A program made the position numbers and the translations under genes. Positions 5,733 through 53,949 of a DNA stretch of 64,000 nucleotides are shown here, in pieces. The stretch's first letter is position 1. Every line of letters begins with the position of its first letter. Source of the stretch: Gammaproteobacteria bacterium (GTDB taxonomy: Bacteria; Pseudomonadota; Gammaproteobacteria; CAKMZV01); the NCBI GenBank assembly GCA_965277625.1, contig OZ255827.1:1608550-1672549 (forward strand). Direction: 5' to 3'. The notes beneath the pieces are model-generated. The model made no database searches. It had not been told where the DNA came from and saw only the letters and a program-made list of their open reading frames with translations.

Positions 5733-5849
5733 GCCTGGCAATGACCTACTCTCACATGGGAACTCCCACACTACCATCGGCGCTAAGACGTTTCACTTCT
5801 GAGTTCGGTATGGAGTCAGGTGTTTCAATCTTGCTATGGTCACCAGGCA
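5733..5849 (-). rRNA. rrf: 5S ribosomal RNA
   Basis: Reverse complement matches bacterial 5S rRNA end to end (TGCCTGGTGACCATAGC...GAACTCAGAAGTGAAACG...CCCATGTGAGAGTAGGTCATTGCCAGGC). Confidence 0.9.
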
Positions 5850-5951: not shown

Positions 5952-8838
<2,887 letters not shown>

Positions 8839-46628: not shown

Positions 46629-49412
46629 TCAGGCTTTGCCATGACATTTTTTGTATTTTTTACCCGAGCCACAAGGGCAAGGTTCGTTCCGCCCAACCTT
46701 CCGCCCTTCACGCTGATAAGGGCTTTGGACAGGTACTGGGGCTTGATTTGAAGCCGCAGGTGATTGAAAGCTGCTACTTGGCGCAGGTTTTGGCCGACTC
46801 ATTTCTTCAGGTGCGGTGAAATTCTTAATCTTAGAATGGCCCAAGTTTACATCGTCTGCTTGACGACGTTTCTCGTCTATGGCCTCAACATCGGCCTCAT
46901 CTTGTAGCTGCACAAAGCATAATACTTTGGTCACATCATGGCGAACATTGTCAAGCAGCTCTTCAAACATTTCAAAAGCTTCTTTTTTATATTCTTGCAG
47001 CGGATTCCTTTGGGCATAGCCGCGTAAATGAATGCCTTGACGCAAGTAATCTAAGCCTGCCAAATGTTCTTTCCAAAGACTGTCCAATACCTGCAATAGC
47101 ACGGCTTTTTCAAAATGACGAATGACGTTTTCGCCCACCTTGTCAGATTTTTGTTTATATACTTGCTCTATGGCCGATAGAATATTTTCCTTAAGACCTG
47201 CTTCAGCCAGAAGATCATCTTCATCTAACCAAGTTTGTAGGGGTAAGCGAATATTGTATTCTTCTTTGAGCGCCTCCTCCAATGATGAAATGTCCCAAAG
47301 TTCAGAAATACTGCCAGGCGGGATGTAGGTGGCAACAGTGGCATGTACATCCTCTTCACGTAATCGCGCAACATAATCTCCCCAATCATCAAATTCCATG
47401 ATGTCATTGCGCTGTTGGTAAATCACTTTTCTTTGATCATTCACCACATTGTCATACTCTAACAGCTGCTTTCTAATCTCAAAGTTTCGACCTTCTACTT
47501 TCTTTTGAGCGTTGGCAATGGCTTTGGTCACCCAATTGTGTTCAATGGCTTCTCCTTGATCCAATCCCAATTTTTGCATCATCCCGCGCATTTTGTCCGA
47601 GGCAAATATGCGCATCAGATCGTCTTCCAATGAAAGATAAAAAATACTGCTGCCTGGATCACCTTGACGACCGGCACGACCTCTTAATTGGTTATCCACC
47701 CGTCTGGACTCATGGCGTTCGGTGCCGATGACGTGCAGACCGCCTAAAGCAATAACCTTATCGTGATTGACCTGCCATTCTTGCCGCATCCGCTCCATTT
47801 CTTGTTCAGATATGCCCTCAATCTGGCTGATTTCAAATTCAACATTGCCACCCAATACAATGTCTGTTCCGCGACCGGCCATATTTGTTGCAATGGTCAC
47901 CGCCCCCAATTGACCCGCTTGGGCTATGATGGTGGCTTCACGTTCGTTTTGTTTGGCATTCAACACAGCGTGTTTTAACTTGGCTTTGTTCAACGCTTCC
48001 GACAGGCGTTCAGAGCTGTCAATGGAGGCTGTACCAACCAAAATGGGCTGTTCTGTTTCGTGGATTTTTTTAATGTCATTGACCAAGGCATCAAATTTTT
48101 CTGCCTCACTCAGATAGACCACATCAATGAAATCTTTTCTCTTAACAGGTACATTCGGTGGGATAACCACAACATTAAGGCTGTAGATTTGCTGAAGCTC
48201 AATGGCTTCTGTATCCGCCGTACCAGTCATTCCTGATAATTTACCGTAGAGCCTAAAATAGTTTTGAAATGTAATCGATGCCAAGGTTTGGTTTTCATTC
48301 TGAATGGGCACCTTTTCCTTTGCTTCGATCGCCTGATGCAAACCATCTGACCAACGTCTGCCCTGCATCTTACGACCAGTAAATTCATCAATAATCACAA
48401 TTTCAGAGTTTTCAATAATGTAATCGGTGTTCTTTTCGTACAAGGTATGCGCCCTGATCGAGGCGGTGATGTTTTGCATCAAATTGATGTTACGCGCATC
48501 ATACAAATTGGCATCTTTGGCTAATATGCCTTTGTTATAGAGAAACTTCTCAACCCGCTCATGACCAGCATCGGTCAATGTCACTGAACGATTTTTCTCA
48601 TCTAAAATATAATCGCCTGGCTTATAGTCTTCACTCGGAATGCCCTCTTTATTGATTTCACCAATTTGTTTGACCAAACTTTTGGGGATGCCGTTCAATT
48701 TACCATAAATTTCTACATCGTCTTCAGATTGCCCTGAAATGATTAACGGCGTTCTCGCTTCATCGATCAAAATGGAATCCACTTCATCGACTATGGCAAA
48801 TGCGTGCCCTCTTTGCATCCGATCATCCGCCGAAAATGCCATGTTATCGCGCAAATAATCGAAACCGAATTCATTGTTGGTGCCGTAGGTGATATCCGCA
48901 TTGTATTGACGGTACTTGTTTTTCCACAATTGTCCGCTCAGAATGACTCCGACGGTTAATCCCAAAAACAAATAGACCTGACCCATCCATTCCGAGTCTC
49001 TTTTGGCCAAATAATCATTGACTGTGACCACATGAACGCCATCACCCTTTAAGGCATTCAGATAGGCCGCTAAGGTGGCAACCAATGTTTTACCTTCACC
49101 TGTTCCCATTTCAGCTATCCTGCCATCGTGCAAGACCATACCCCCAATCAACTGCACATCAAAATGACGCATGCCAAGCACCCTTCGGCTCGCTTCACGA
49201 CAAACGGCAAAGGCTTCTGGTAGCAAACTGTCTAAGGATTCTCCTGATTCTAATCGTTCCTTAAAATGCGGCGTTTTGTCTTGTAATTGTGTATCACTCA
49301 AATCCTTCAGCCCATCCTCTAACGAGTTGATTGCTTGGATACGTTTTTGATATTTTTTTATGGTGCGGCTATTGCTTGTTCCAAAAATGGATTGAAGGGC
49401 GCTGTTTATCAT
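46629..49412 (-). CDS. secA: Preprotein translocase ATPase SecA
   Basis: 927-aa protein with DEAD motor motifs, a preprotein cross-linking domain and a C-terminal zinc finger ([14 protein letters not shown]). Confidence 0.97.
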
Positions 49413-49524
49413 GTAACTAAAAATTTAGGGGACGAGTTATAAAAATGAATTCAAATATTGAATTGAGGTAGTAAAATGGTATATGGATGTCTATTTTAAC
49501 ATTTTACAAAGTGAGAGTACTATC

Positions 49525-50535
49525 ATGCGTTTTATAAATATTTTAATTTGCTTATTTGCATTAGCATTATCAATCAACATCAGCTCAGCTAACGCTAAGC
49601 CCAAGCCAGGCAGTTATATTTTGGCAACAGCCAGTGCTGGCGGAACCTACTACCCTGTGGGTGTTGCTTTGGCAACCTTAACCAAAGTAAAAATACAACC
49701 CAAGTTTAAGGTGAGCATTTCGGCCATCAATTCAGCTGGTTCGGGCGAAAACGTTAAATTATTACGCGAAGATGAAGCCCAATTTGCCATTTTACAGGGG
49801 TTATACGGATCCTATGCATGGTCTGGAACAGGTCCCATTAAGCAAAAGCAATCACAATTGCGCTCGGTTTCCATGTTGTGGCAGAACGTAGAGCAGATCA
49901 TCATCAGCTCTGAATACGCCAAATCGGGTACGGTATCTGACCTCAATAGCATTCCCAATAGTGCCCACTTGGCATTGGGGAAAAAGAATTCAGGCACTAT
50001 CGGTTCCAATCGCGAAATATTTGCCAATCTGGGTATCAACATTGACCAATACAAATTGGTTCATGCAGGTTATGGGCCTTCGGCAACAGCACTTCAAGAT
50101 GGTCGTGTGGTGGGCATCAACACCCCTGCAGGTGTTCCCACAGGTGCGATAACAAAATTGCTTGCATCAGTTTCGGATAAAGTCACTTTACTCGACATGT
50201 CCGATGCTCAAGCTAAGAAAGCAGACGGTGGTCGCAACCTATGGACACGCTATGTCATTCCAGCAAACACCTATCCCAATCAGCCAAAGGCATGGAATAC
50301 CATCGCTCAACCGAACTTTCTTGCCACAAACCAAGACGTTGATGAAGAATTTGTTTATCTTTTGACTAAAACCATGTATGAAAATCTGCCCTTCCTCAAT
50401 GCCATCCACAAAGCCACAAAAGCCATGCATTTGGAAAAAGCCATTGCCGGTTTACCTGTGCCTTTGCATAAAGGGGCTGCGCGATTCTATAAAGAAAAAG
50501 GTATAAAAATACCAGCGCATTTATTGGTTGATTAA
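49525..50535 (+). CDS. TAXI-family TRAP transporter solute receptor
   Basis: Signal peptide followed by ATASAGGTYYPVGVALA, typical of the TAXI/immunogenic-protein family. Start moved to the internal Met (MRFINIL). Confidence 0.85.
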   Translation: MRFINILICLFALALSINISSANAKPKPGSYILATASAGGTYYPVGVALATLTKVKIQPKFKVSISAINSAGSGENVKLLREDEAQFAILQGLYGSYAWSGTGPIKQKQSQLRSVSMLWQNVEQIIISSEYAKSGTVSDLNSIPNSAHLALGKKNSGTIGSNREIFANLGINIDQYKLVHAGYGPSATALQDGRVVGINTPAGVPTGAITKLLASVSDKVTLLDMSDAQAKKADGGRNLWTRYVIPANTYPNQPKAWNTIAQPNFLATNQDVDEEFVYLLTKTMYENLPFLNAIHKATKAMHLEKAIAGLPVPLHKGAARFYKEKGIKIPAHLLVD

Positions 50536-50586
50536 GGATTTCAGTCAGTTTTAACAGATACTACTCTATGATTAAGAAAACCGATC

Positions 50587-50926
50587 ATGACCCAATCGTC
50601 TCATTGGGATCGCATGCCCAACAGCATTGCTGAAGAGATCGATAAAAATCGTCAAGATCGGTTTTTCTTTATCTACCTAAACAGCCTTACCTTCATACCT
50701 TCGTCGATCGATGGTCTGATTAACATTATCATTTTCTGTCCTGCAGAAAACCGATCATGACTCAAATATCTCCTTGGGATCGTATTCCCAACAGCATTGC
50801 TAAAGAGATCGATAAAAATCGTCAAGATCGGTTTTTCTTTATCTATCTAAACAGCCTTACCGTCATACCTTCGTCGATCGATGGCCTGATTAACATTATC
50901 ATTTCCTGTCCTGCAGAAAACCGATC
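50587..50926 (+). repeat. Two extra tandem 170-bp copies of the 5' end of the downstream TRAP permease gene, each a 56-codon ORF ending in ATGA
   Basis: Direct comparison of units 50587-50756 and 50757-50926 with the gene start at 50927. The first 85 nt or so are near-identical across all three. The two upstream copies match each other in the rest of the unit, where the real gene is more diverged. Confidence 0.85.
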
Positions 50927-53020
50927 ATGACCCAAATATCTCCTTGGGATCGTATTCCCAACAGCATTGCTGAAGAGATCGATAAAAATCGTCAAGATCG
51001 GTTTTTCTATTTCTATGCCGCCAGCGTTGCCCTCATACATTTGTTGATCAATGGTCTGATTAATATCGATGCCTCACAGCTGAGCATACTCCATCTGGCC
51101 AGTTTTATGATCGTCTGCGTCTGGCTGAACCCAATTAGCACACATAAAAGTTGGCAAACCATTGATCGCCTTATATTCTTTGTGGTTGCCTTGGCCTGCC
51201 TCTACATTTCTTACGCTGAAGATCAAATCTATGAACGGGGGGTACACTTAGACATTTATGATTGGATCGCCGGTGCCGTGACCATTCTCGGCGTCATAGA
51301 ATTAACACGCCGAACAACTGGTTGGATTATTCCGATTTTGATCATAACTGGCTTAAGTTATGTGGTTTGGTGGGGCGATTTATTGTCAGGTGTATTTCGG
51401 TTCTCGTCTCTGAGTCCTGAGACCTTGATGTTTCGTAGCCTTTATGGGGATGATGCGCTTTTTGGCACCATTTCTCGTATCTCGGCGACTTTTGTTTTTA
51501 TCTTCATTATTTTCGGTGCTTTTTTGTTACGCTCGGGTGCGGGGGATTTTGTCATCCATCTTTCCAACGCCATCGCCCAGAAAATCACCGGAGGCCCTGG
51601 GATCATTGCTGTGATTTCGTCTGGATTGACGGGCACCATTTCTGGATCAGCCATTGCCAATACGGCATCGACAGGGGTGATCACCATACCCATGATGATA
51701 AAAGCTGGCTTCCCGCCACGCTTCGCCGCTGCTGTCGAAGCTGCCGCTTCCACAGGAGGTCAACTGATGCCACCCATTATGGGAGCAGGGGCTTTTGTCA
51801 TGGCAAGTTATACCCAAATTCCCTATGGCACTATTGTTTTAGTGAGCATTCTCCCTGCCATTTTATACTTCATGTCATTGATCTTCTATATTCAAATCGA
51901 AGCCAAAAAATATGGCATAAAAGCCGTTCAAATTGAATCGGTGAGCATCTGGACCTTATTATTCAAAGAAGGCTTATCATTCATTCTGCCAATCATTACG
52001 CTGATCACCTTATTTATTATTGGCTATACGCCCGTCTATGCTGGGGTGGCTGCCATTACCGTCATTATTATTTCCTCGTGGTTCACACCAACCAAATTGG
52101 GATTCAAGGGCATCATCGACGCACTGGCATTAGCCACTAAGAATATGGCAACAACTGCCATACTACTGTGCACTGTCGGGCTCATTATTAATGTAATTGT
52201 CACAGCAGGCATTGGCAATACTTTTTCTTTGATGATCGCTGATTGGTCTGGCGGGTCGTTGTTGCTCGCCATTACTTTGGTCGCGCTCGCTTCTTTGATA
52301 CTCGGCATGGGATTGCCCGTGACGGCATCTTATATCGTGCTTGCCACCCTATCAGCACCCGCCTTATTTAACTTGATCGCCCAGTCCAATATCGTAGAAG
52401 CACTCGTTGCGACACCCGAATTGCCTGAATTGAGTGCCATCATAGCCATCATCTCACCGGAACTCTTGCCACTGCCGCAATCGTTTACTGTGGCAGAAGC
52501 ACAAGCTTTTGTGCAACAACTGCCAACCGAAGCACAATTATTACTCCACCCTATCCTCATCGATGAACAAAGCCTAACGATGATTCTTTTGGCGGCCCAT
52601 TTAATCATTTTCTGGCTGTCACAAGACTCCAATATCACGCCGCCTGTCTGTCTGTGTACGTTCACCGCCGCCGCCATTGCAAAAACGCACCCCATGCTTA
52701 CCGGTCTAACTTCATGGAAGGTGGCCAAAGCTTTGTACATCATTCCTTGTTTATTCGCCTTTACGCCCTTTATTACTGGCAACTTCTCAGACGTTATTCA
52801 GGTGTTCGTCGTTGCTTCATTTGGTCTCTTTGCTTTTACTTTGGCCATGCAAGGATTTTATACACGACCGCTCAATATCGCCTTACGGGTCATCATGCTT
52901 AGCACCGCAATTATCTTGATTTATCCATTTAACCTCTTCATTCATATGGGCACCATCGCATTATTATTGTTGCTGTTGTTCTGGCTAAAAAGACAAACCG
53001 TACAACCACACTGTCCATAA
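50927..53020 (+). CDS. TAXI-associated TRAP transporter fused permease (DctQ-DctM fusion)
   Basis: 697-aa polytopic protein immediately downstream of the TAXI receptor. Its size and hydrophobicity are typical of fused TRAP permeases. Confidence 0.85.
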   Translation: MTQISPWDRIPNSIAEEIDKNRQDRFFYFYAASVALIHLLINGLINIDASQLSILHLASFMIVCVWLNPISTHKSWQTIDRLIFFVVALACLYISYAEDQIYERGVHLDIYDWIAGAVTILGVIELTRRTTGWIIPILIITGLSYVVWWGDLLSGVFRFSSLSPETLMFRSLYGDDALFGTISRISATFVFIFIIFGAFLLRSGAGDFVIHLSNAIAQKITGGPGIIAVISSGLTGTISGSAIANTASTGVITIPMMIKAGFPPRFAAAVEAAASTGGQLMPPIMGAGAFVMASYTQIPYGTIVLVSILPAILYFMSLIFYIQIEAKKYGIKAVQIESVSIWTLLFKEGLSFILPIITLITLFIIGYTPVYAGVAAITVIIISSWFTPTKLGFKGIIDALALATKNMATTAILLCTVGLIINVIVTAGIGNTFSLMIADWSGGSLLLAITLVALASLILGMGLPVTASYIVLATLSAPALFNLIAQSNIVEALVATPELPELSAIIAIISPELLPLPQSFTVAEAQAFVQQLPTEAQLLLHPILIDEQSLTMILLAAHLIIFWLSQDSNITPPVCLCTFTAAAIAKTHPMLTGLTSWKVAKALYIIPCLFAFTPFITGNFSDVIQVFVVASFGLFAFTLAMQGFYTRPLNIALRVIMLSTAIILIYPFNLFIHMGTIALLLLLLFWLKRQTVQPHCP

Positions 53021-53022
53021 TA

Positions 53023-53949
53023 ATGGTCAAAGTTGCATTGGGTGTTATCTCAATTGATCAAGGTTATTTATTGTCTCTAAGACCATCCAATACCCATTTG
53101 GCTGACCATTGGGAGTTTCCGGGAGGGAAGATAGAACAATCTGAAACGTCTATAGAAGCCCTTAAACGCGAGCTCCATGAAGAGATTGGCATCCAGGTCA
53201 TTGAGGCACAGTGTTTTTTGGTATTCAGTTGGCAGTACGCCGACCTAAATATCGAATTTCATTGCTTTCTAATCGATCAGTTTCGCGGAACGCCCACCTC
53301 AAAAGAAGGGCAACGATTAGAGGGTTATTCTTTTTTGGCAATGAAAAAACTGCGCATTCCTGCAGCCAATCAATATCTGATTAACGCCTTGATGTTGCCC
53401 CAAACCTTAGCCATCAGTCCCCAATTGTCTGGAACAGCCGCGCATTTTCAACAATGTTTGAAACAGTTTGACGACCCACAACGCATGGTGCGAATCCGTG
53501 TTGGTGATCCGGCCATTTTTACAATAGAGCAGTGGCAAACATTGGCAATTGAAGCACAAAAAACCCAAACTTTTATATTGTTTGAACCCGCAGTGTATGA
53601 GCACATTCGAACCAATGATTATTGTGGCATCCATCTGAAGCAAGATGCGCTCATGACGAATAAAACCAAACCACAGGCGGCGATTGTTGGCGCATCATGT
53701 CACGATGCCGCCAGCCTCAATCGCGCCTTAGCATTAGGCATGGATTATGTTTTACTTTCGCCTATATTGAGCACCAACTCACATCCAGATATTGCTGGAA
53801 TGGGCTGGCAGAAGATGCAGAGCTTGATTCAATCAAAACCCACTGTGGTGTATGCTTTGGGAGGGATGCAACAATCTCATCTTAAAATCGCTCGAAAACA
53901 TCAAGCGCACGGGATTGCTGGCATCAGTGATTTTTGGCTTAGTAAATAA
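53023..53949 (+). CDS. mutT: Nudix (MutT-like 8-oxo-dGTP diphosphatase) fused to a ThiE/TenI-like domain
   Basis: N-terminal Nudix box (GGKIEQSETSIEALKRELHEEIG). The C-terminal 180 or so residues have a thiamine-phosphate-synthase-like fold (AIVGASCHD...YVLLSPI...ALGG). Confidence 0.7.
   Translation: MVKVALGVISIDQGYLLSLRPSNTHLADHWEFPGGKIEQSETSIEALKRELHEEIGIQVIEAQCFLVFSWQYADLNIEFHCFLIDQFRGTPTSKEGQRLEGYSFLAMKKLRIPAANQYLINALMLPQTLAISPQLSGTAAHFQQCLKQFDDPQRMVRIRVGDPAIFTIEQWQTLAIEAQKTQTFILFEPAVYEHIRTNDYCGIHLKQDALMTNKTKPQAAIVGASCHDAASLNRALALGMDYVLLSPILSTNSHPDIAGMGWQKMQSLIQSKPTVVYALGGMQQSHLKIARKHQAHGIAGISDFWLSK

Follow-up and report, generated by a model that had tools for sequence, protein, structure and literature searches.

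What does it mean for a bacterial transporter gene to have its own beginning written out three times in succession, and do the additional beginnings contribute anything to the gene that follows them? The locus that raises this question lies in a 64,000-nucleotide (nt) stretch of gammaproteobacterial DNA (assembly GCA_965277625.1, contig OZ255827.1, forward-strand positions 1,608,550 to 1,672,549), which we refer to as the window and from whose first letter all coordinates are counted. The locus is a TAXI-TRAP transporter operon in which, by Pfam assignment, a TAXI binding-protein gene is followed by a gene for a fused DctQ/M-type permease. Here the 5' end of the permease gene forms a tandem array of 170-nt units, and the upstream units encode short upstream open reading frames (uORFs), each of which ends on the start codon of the unit that follows. 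We lean slightly towards a reading in which the array is a dynamic tandem duplication whose upstream copies would feed ribosomes into the permease as a relay linked by translational coupling.

The array and its carriers

The repeat structure was recovered by two programs. Tandem Repeats Finder reported a single array at 50575-51063 with a period of 170, 2.9 copies, 90% matches and zero indels, and a repeat finder resolved three head-to-tail, in-register copies in which units 2 and 3 are 93% and 78% identical to unit 1, bearing out the three consecutive 170-nt units described by the first-pass annotation of this DNA. The 64-kb window contains no other large tandem repeat. The motif GAAAACCGATC, allowing at most one mismatch, occurs 8 times against 1.1 expected, with six of the eight occurrences inside the array, and the array far exceeds chance expectation. 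Its parts are as follows.

50536..50574, + strand: spacer from the binding-protein stop codon to unit 1, containing AGTCAGTTTTAACA, with TTAACA at 50551-50556
50575..50744, + strand: repeat unit 1, comprising the start region, N-tail codons, a decayed first helix and an apparently spacer-derived tail
50587..50760, + strand: uORF1 (from the list of open reading frames), 57 codons plus TGA, with its stop in the ATGA at 50757-50760
50745..50914, + strand: repeat unit 2, a chimera that is gene-like in columns 1-96 and unit-1-like in columns 97-170
50757..50930, + strand: uORF2 (from the same list), 57 codons plus TGA, with its stop in the ATGA at 50927-50930
50915..51084, + strand: repeat unit 3, the authentic permease 5' end, whose resemblance to units 1 and 2 stops near 51063
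50927..53020, + strand: TAXI-TRAP fused permease (4 and 12 transmembrane segments, 4TM/12TM) of 697 amino acids (aa), with Pfam DctM at residues 120-603 (E 1.8e-59)

For the comparisons below, each unit is divided into block A (columns 1-17), a patch (18-42) and blocks B (43-96), C (97-150) and D (151-170). The ATGA coupling of both uORFs and the continuation of unit 3 as the real 697-aa permease stood up to examination, and several details of the earlier description were corrected. Each uORF has 57 sense codons rather than 56, there are 12 differences over 170 positions between units 1 and 2 rather than about 8, and unit 1 opens with ATGACCCAATCGTCTCA and not with ...CAAATATCTCC. The inverted pair reported in each unit is present, with a second arm that reads GATCGGTTTTTC (one extra T); the true pairing is between AAAACCGATCATGAC and GTCAAGATCGGTTTT, an inverted repeat of 15 nt with one mismatch, whose arms lie 59 nt apart and include the ATG. 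The observation that units 1 and 2 are alike in their 3' halves while the gene has diverged is reproduced in numbers: the two units agree at 51/54 positions of block C and 19/20 of block D, whereas their agreement with the gene copy falls to 39/54 and then to 4-5/20. Nor does the repeat belong to a longer upstream gene, since the binding-protein gene ends before it and the 57-aa reading frame is called separately, with no Pfam match.

The same array is present at three further loci, L001 (OZ255843.1, the chromosome of a gammaproteobacterial metagenome-assembled genome, MAG), L081 and L082, which we compare with the genome of the window (W). These four sequences make up the entire 90%-identity cluster of the permease, on contigs of 2.06, 2.08, 2.11 and 0.50 Mb, and the next permease relative in a collection of 5.8 billion proteins is 61% identical; the protein collection, JGI metagenomes included, contains no relative at an identity between 61% and 98%. 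An exact-protein look-up of the window permease returned no record, and the exact uORF2 peptide is on record as an unnamed 57-aa product of a 2,106,115-bp contig. When the uORF2 peptide was searched against the 5.8-billion-protein collection at E values up to 10, only four orthologous small reading frames matched, and a 57-aa relative has been called in all three other genomes. A further search of JGI metagenome contigs with a 34-mer from the nearly frozen part of the unit gave 0 matches. The four genomes differ by 8.5-18% at 4-fold-degenerate permease sites, and identity between W and L001 amounts to 94.9% across 10.4 kb.

Copy number varies within this small group, with three units in W, L001 and L082 (where unit 1 starts AGAAAGCC) and two in L081; a single copy was not seen among the array-carrying relatives. 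None of the seven uORFs in the four genomes is disrupted and every one ends in ATGA, among them uORF1 of L001, which encodes 53 aa after a 12-nt in-frame deletion between two GATC-containing direct repeats. This deletion (L001 4119-4135 compared with L001 4277-4305; TTGATCGATGGTCTGATCAAT to TTGATCAAT) shows small-scale slippage within units, besides the exchange of whole units. Found in four independent assemblies, three of them on contigs of 2.06-2.11 Mb, with unit-specific substitutions and differing copy numbers, the tandem array is real, is inherited and still undergoes recombination, and the argument already made against an assembly artefact holds.

Origin and turnover of the units

Homologs that are 55-61% identical to the permease have in common with it an N-terminal motif, W(N/D)R(I/V)P(D/E)SI..E(I/V)D..R, followed by a hydrophobic helix. 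Because this N-tail motif and first helix are conserved in the homologs, 50927 is the authentic permease start, and the units are therefore copies of real coding sequence, each containing the codons of the cytoplasmic N-tail and first helix together with the 12 nt 5' of the ATG. Units 1 and 2 part from the gene in their final 20 nt, which apparently were copied from the spacer upstream of unit 1 and have since diverged from it; the likeness reaches p = 0.006 in L001 and is not significant in the other three genomes. TTAACA bounds every unit in all four genomes at a spacing of about 170 nt, and an imperfect direct repeat recurs over the same distance, as AGTCAGTTTTAACA in the spacer and GGTCTGATTAACA in the gene. 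We propose the TTAACA site of the spacer as the upstream endpoint of the original duplication, and the array probably originated by microhomology-mediated tandem duplication between these two TTAACA-containing imperfect repeats. The duplicated 170 nt would have comprised about 20 nt of spacer, a permease start region with no Shine-Dalgarno (SD) sequence, plus the first ~46-52 codons. Because 170 leaves a remainder of 2 when divided by 3 and the gene begins with ATGA, the overlap of stop and start codons at each junction is an automatic consequence.

Four homologs of about 60% identity (L083-L086) served as the comparison outside the array-carrying clade, in place of 80 distant genome-collection loci that lack the N-tail motif. 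All four have the same layout, with the binding-protein gene, a gap of 52-80 nt and the permease, and all four have a single copy, no repeated 14-mers near the start, and a start that is unstructured (folding z-score 0 to +1.4). Among 78 other TAXI-permease loci, none has a tandem repeat at the 5' end of the gene. On this comparison, the structured start and its duplication are lineage-specific. In the gap just 3' of the binding-protein stop (around 2430-2500), the four homologs carry a GC-rich stem-loop; the W lineage is without it (50536-50586) and has a structured permease start instead, and one means of setting differential expression may have been replaced by another. Repeats of other kinds lie near two of the distant loci, neither of them at a gene 5' end: a period-207 repeat of 2.2 copies just downstream of the permease in a Rhodospirillales MAG (L002 6206-6655) and two period-72 repeats upstream of the locus in a Pseudomonadales MAG (L064 1299-2054).

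After its formation the array was expanded, contracted and homogenised by unequal crossing-over and gene conversion, yielding the present two or three units. Unit 2 of W has 3 differences to the gene copy and 8 to unit 1 over columns 1-96, and 4 differences to unit 1 and 30 to the gene copy over columns 97-170; unit 2 of L082 is likewise gene-like in its 5' part. To judge from these sequences, the chimeric unit of W is the middle unit expected from unequal crossing-over of a two-unit array like that of L081. The uORF tails fall into type A (W units 1 and 2, L081 unit 1, L082 unit 1) and type B (L001 units 1 and 2, L082 unit 2), and at least two or three copy-number or conversion events must therefore have occurred within this shallow clade. 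Unit 2 of L082 carries the L001-like type-B tail (L082 3809-3988 compared with L001 4147-4316), and at 4-fold sites the distance of L082 from L001 (0.137) is smaller than that of W or L081 (0.18); this suggests that lineages have exchanged DNA here, or nearby, by homologous recombination.

The units also record how old the array is and how unevenly it has evolved. Between the gene and the consensus tail of the uORFs there are 14 differences over 57 positions (~25%), and because this exceeds the largest neutral distance between the genomes, 18%, the first duplication predates the clade. The proposal of an old duplication that has been maintained is thus upheld as to its age; maintenance of the uORF peptides is disfavoured, with tails that evolve neutrally. 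In blocks C and D the uORF copies of W and L001 have diverged by 20-25%, approximately the 4-fold-site rate of 18%, while blocks A and B are nearly frozen, with 2 differences in block B of units 1 and 2 against ~19 expected at the neutral rate. Variants in block B are common to paralogous units within a genome (for example column 54, T/C, and column 63, G/A), and these common polymorphisms therefore indicate gene conversion with the constrained gene copy.

Predicted start structure and the case for a ribosome relay

The three start codons of the array have no SD pairing, with duplex energies of -1.4, +0.2 and +0.2 kcal/mol compared with a median of -3 for long open reading frames of the window and -6.9 kcal/mol for the binding-protein gene. 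Weak SD pairing is also seen across the 38 long reading frames of the window, many of whose starts (taken crudely as the first ATG) lie near 0, and SD-independent initiation may therefore be common in this genome. At each start of the array the RNA is predicted to fold stably, with the minimum free energies (MFE) given below.

50576..50667, + strand: predicted structure of unit 1, MFE -35.9 kcal/mol, z -5.1
50746..50837, + strand: predicted structure of unit 2, MFE -30.3 kcal/mol, z -3.9
50916..51007, + strand: predicted structure at the real permease start, MFE -32.6 kcal/mol, z -4.4

In the prediction, a closing helix, AAAACCGAUC.AUGAC / GUCA.GAUCGGUUUU, pairs the AUG and encloses three to four small hairpins (columns ~3-93), in agreement with the suggestion that the inverted repeat occludes the start codon. 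Six units were folded singly, namely five of the seven uORF units and the gene copy of the two-unit genome L081; in five of these six the energy lies between -29 and -36 kcal/mol, z between -3.8 and -5.2 relative to dinucleotide shuffles, and the AUG is paired. The exception is unit 2 of L001, which has two mutations in the arms and a z of -1.5. Separate shuffle scans gave z of -3.8 to -4.5 for the gene copies of W, L001 and L082 and for unit 1 of L082, and -3.5 for unit 1 of L001. One consensus of 32 pairs fits all 11 units, and the frozen blocks A and B coincide with the predicted structure. The MFE fold of the whole leader pairs arms of different units over long range; we set it aside, since a prediction over 570 nt is unreliable and RNA that folds as it is transcribed tends to form local helices.

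This arrangement provides a possible route by which the upstream copies could feed ribosomes into the permease. More than half of the nucleotide differences between the W and L001 permeases fall at the 315 4-fold sites, and under such strong purifying selection the permease must be translated. Its AUG would be reached either by de novo initiation on a near-identical start region or by relay from the uORFs, and because both routes require translation of uORF1, this frame would have to be translated as well. The upstream copies would then be truncated pseudo-starts bearing the gene's own initiation region. Each upstream frame would terminate on the UGA within the next AUGA, and the terminating ribosome would occupy and melt the 5' arm that sequesters the next AUG before re-initiating there; the last five uORF codons, GAA AAC CGA TCA TGA, form the 5' arm of the closing helix in the unit that follows. 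We infer uORF translation, re-initiation and an effect on permease output from this arrangement, and the translationally coupled cascade suggested in the first-pass annotation is plausible, as its geometry, SD-less starts and paired AUG all fit. Programmed frameshifting that would fuse the units was rejected as a candidate, since inspection of the sequence revealed no canonical slippery heptamer at the junction CAGAAAACCGATCATGA.

Several considerations weigh against such a relay. Covariation analysis of the 11 units found zero compensatory pairs, and among single-sided changes 8 kept a wobble pair and 7 broke the pairing; because no compensatory change is seen, the support for the predicted structure is thermodynamic. 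Palindromic GATC is abundant here, which might on its own be enough to inflate the z-scores of the folds, and gene conversion alone can explain the conservation of the 5' blocks. Translation and re-initiation are inferred steps, and the uORF1 start is as poor and as paired as that of the ancestral gene, which makes any gain in ribosome entry through the relay doubtful. Finally, the array is carried by four closely related genomes only, from which long-term selection is not demonstrable.

Should the relay operate, it could be selected or tolerated. We give an even chance to a tolerated, near-neutral structure that persists since its coupling geometry makes it harmless, and regard positive selection, for example through raising or tuning the permease-to-binding-protein ratio, as a tentative prospect that we doubt more than we believe. 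An equally tentative version of selection is a copy-number rheostat, in which each unit would add ribosome entry and helix melting, one, two or three units would set the output, and unequal crossing-over would supply heritable variation on which selection could act. The array is older than the clade and has been retained in 4/4 genomes, although the exchanges that change two units to three could equally easily collapse it to a single copy, an absorbing state from which it is not easily re-expanded. All seven uORFs keep their frame and ATGA even after the 12-nt deletion in L001, and a lineage that has lost the intercistronic stem-loop of its homologs may rely on the array for differential expression. 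Persistence and open frames are nevertheless unsurprising: just 2.1% of possible substitutions introduce a stop, the probability that none arises over 27-60 events is 0.27-0.56, and only ~2-3 copy-number events are inferable. The sole indel is a multiple of three, a one-in-three chance, the ATGA overlap follows automatically from the geometry, and there is no convergent occurrence in the 78 other loci or the 4 closer homologs. Tolerance accords with this lack of convergence, with the neutral tails, with the sufficiency of gene conversion for the frozen block and with persistence statistics that are non-significant, and on the evidence the array looks more like a by-product, tolerated or mildly useful, than like a new regulatory device. 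We consider it unlikely that the array is a naturally evolved copy-number-tunable relay, offering reversible permease/binding-protein tuning and a uORF or leader peptide born from the gene's own 5' end.

Explanations that place function elsewhere than in the relay are considerably weaker. The 57-aa products could be small membrane peptides that serve as decoys or modulators by mimicking the permease N-tail and first helix, an explanation we find very improbable and one that the first-pass annotation had offered as membrane-insertion decoys. The conserved N-tail and a hydrophobic stretch are retained (maximum 19-residue Kyte-Doolittle mean 1.5-2.0, compared with 1.76 for helix 1 of the gene), the latter being weak evidence for peptide function, and pairwise ratios of nonsynonymous to synonymous change (pN/pS) are mostly below 1 (0.1-1.55, mostly 0.3-0.9), from very small counts. 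The uORF-only codons 28-53, on the other hand, change neutrally: their 30 unique substitution events comprise 11 synonymous and 19 nonsynonymous changes, not different from the neutral expectation of 27% synonymous (p = 0.17), no codon position is favoured (10:8:12), and nucleotide divergence of the tails equals the 4-fold-site rate. One copy has lost 4 residues of the hydrophobic segment, one genome has a single uORF, and no family match was found for either uORF in Pfam or in the protein collection. The uORF peptides are probably not functional, and their tails would be by-products in neutral decay; annotators should regard the 57-aa frames as fragments of a gene start and not as new small proteins. 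Equally hard to credit is a DNA-level element, in which repeated protein-binding or Dam-methylation (GATC) sites would govern transcription or phase variation and the reading frames would be incidental. GATC is strongly clustered in 50575-51270, at 5 per unit, and one 500-bp bin contains 14 where the window averages 1.6; in the gene copy taken singly, the first 355 nt include 9 sites, with 1.17 expected (Poisson P = 4e-6), and the 15-nt inverted repeat could be read in the same sense. Against this, the sites lie within an operon, downstream of the binding-protein gene, with no promoter- or terminator-like site in 50536-51100. They fall in D-R and I-D codons that also occur in homologs, and because the four ~60% homologs are 2-4-fold enriched in the same region, the GATC excess arises partly from these codons. 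Arms 59 nt apart are atypical for an operator, a change in copy number would not turn the gene on or off, and nothing supports this explanation beyond the GATC excess itself. Almost no credence can be given to an assembly artefact, which the four assemblies contradict, or to the insertion, where the gene begins, of a MITE-like element (miniature inverted-repeat transposable element) that has terminal inverted repeats of 15 nt: the 89-nt segment between the inverted repeats does fold stably in the fashion of a MITE, but it encodes the N-tail motif of the 55-61% homologs, and is hence ancestral coding sequence rather than an insertion, and the repeat motif occurs only in the array within the 64 kb, in keeping with the empty 34-mer search of JGI contigs.

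Two further candidates were tried and rejected. A transcription-attenuation leader of the trpL type finds no terminator in 50536-51100, no amino-acid run in the peptide and no Rfam match. Of the slipped-strand phase variation proposed at the outset, the variation in copy number (3, 3, 3 and 2) is borne out and the mechanism is not, unequal crossing-over and gene conversion taking its place. Classical variation of this kind is set aside in view of the 170-nt unit and of a final gene copy and coupling that are intact in both two- and three-unit alleles; because the last copy stays intact, a change in copy number would not switch the gene off. Compared with contingency loci, the array has copy-number polymorphism among close relatives but lacks the 1-10-nt repeats of on/off switching.

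Operon setting, known parallels and significance

The relatives keep the gene order of binding protein then permease, and in the window the array follows directly on the first gene of the operon.

49483..50535, + strand: TAXI-type TRAP solute-binding protein gene, with Pfam NMT1_3 at residues 47-340 (E 6e-100)

The binding-protein reading frame is open from 49483, giving 350 aa, while the gene calls of L081 and L082 start at the equivalent of 49525 and give 336 aa; the true start is likely M15 at 49525, and the product from this start, MRFINIL..., is signal-peptide-like. Upstream, in the interval that separates it from the divergent secA, positions 49450-49477 carry a promoter-like site (TTCAAA-16-TAAAAT). 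The scan for promoters and terminators that found no such site in 50536-51100 gave overall counts not above those of shuffles. Rfam at E <= 5 over 49000-52000 returned no relevant family (riboswitch, leader or thermometer), and at gathering thresholds the window returned only 23S and 5S rRNA. These rRNA genes, on the minus strand at 5968-8832 and 5733-5847 respectively, could be used to place the organism. A gene at 53023-53949 (+), 2 nt past the permease stop, encodes a fusion of NUDIX (MutT-like) and thiamine-phosphate-synthase-like (TMP-TENI) domains and occupies the same position in L081 and L082. Two antisense reading frames run through the units, at 50673-50825 (-) and 50843-51040 (-), of 50 and 65 aa, and are most simply a by-product of the repeat.

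The individual ingredients of the relay we favour have precedents. Overlapping stop/start pairs couple translation, and the SD-less start of M13 gene VII initiates only by coupling (PMC2268962). As in the gene V-gene VII pair of M13/f1, each stop in the array overlaps the next start as AUGA and the downstream start is SD-less and looks 'inherently defective', so that it would plausibly need ribosomes supplied from the upstream frame. Unlike gene V, the upstream cistron of the array is a truncated tandem copy of the start of the downstream gene, present once or twice, and the start of its first copy is as poor as that of the gene itself. In Salmonella, translation of mgtQ, a uORF between mgtC and mgtB, frees the sequestered start of the mgtB transporter gene (PMC8092293). 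The uORFs of the array are similarly within an operon, just 5' of a transporter gene whose start lies in a predicted inhibitory stem-loop. The array differs from mgtQ in having no identified codon runs or arrest motifs, in the 57-codon length of its uORF and its homology to the main reading frame, in its variable copy number, and in a structure whose support is thermodynamic.

The leader peptides of plasmid repA genes are likewise uORFs that unmask a sequestered initiation region. In synthetic bicistronic designs a short leader cistron overlaps the gene start, and the ribosomes that translate it remove local mRNA structure; such cassettes embed an SD sequence for the second cistron, whereas the array has none, is natural and arose by self-duplication. 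With ordinary tandem duplications under concerted evolution, the array has in common microhomology at the endpoints, a chimeric middle unit, polymorphisms common to paralogs and differences in copy number. It departs from them in that its segment contains a start codon and initiation region and has a length of 2 mod 3, which yields coupled uORFs, and in having outlasted the divergence of a clade. Tandem duplication, concerted evolution, stop/start coupling and the unmasking of a sequestered start by a uORF are thus all known. In the literature searched we found no described bacterial uORF, or uORF cascade, copied in tandem from the start of its own downstream gene and variable in copy number between strains, an absence that such a search does not prove.

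If the relay affects expression, duplication of a start region with a unit of 2 mod 3 would be a simple and undescribed route to coupled uORFs, and copy number would provide heritable tuning of translation, with implications for the origins of leader peptides and for the ratio of binding protein to permease that operons establish. Should the array be only tolerated, it still offers a clean natural case of concerted evolution in a very short array and shows how reading-frame geometry can render a partial duplication of a gene's 5' end harmless. Its main value lies in a possible snapshot of the birth of a uORF.

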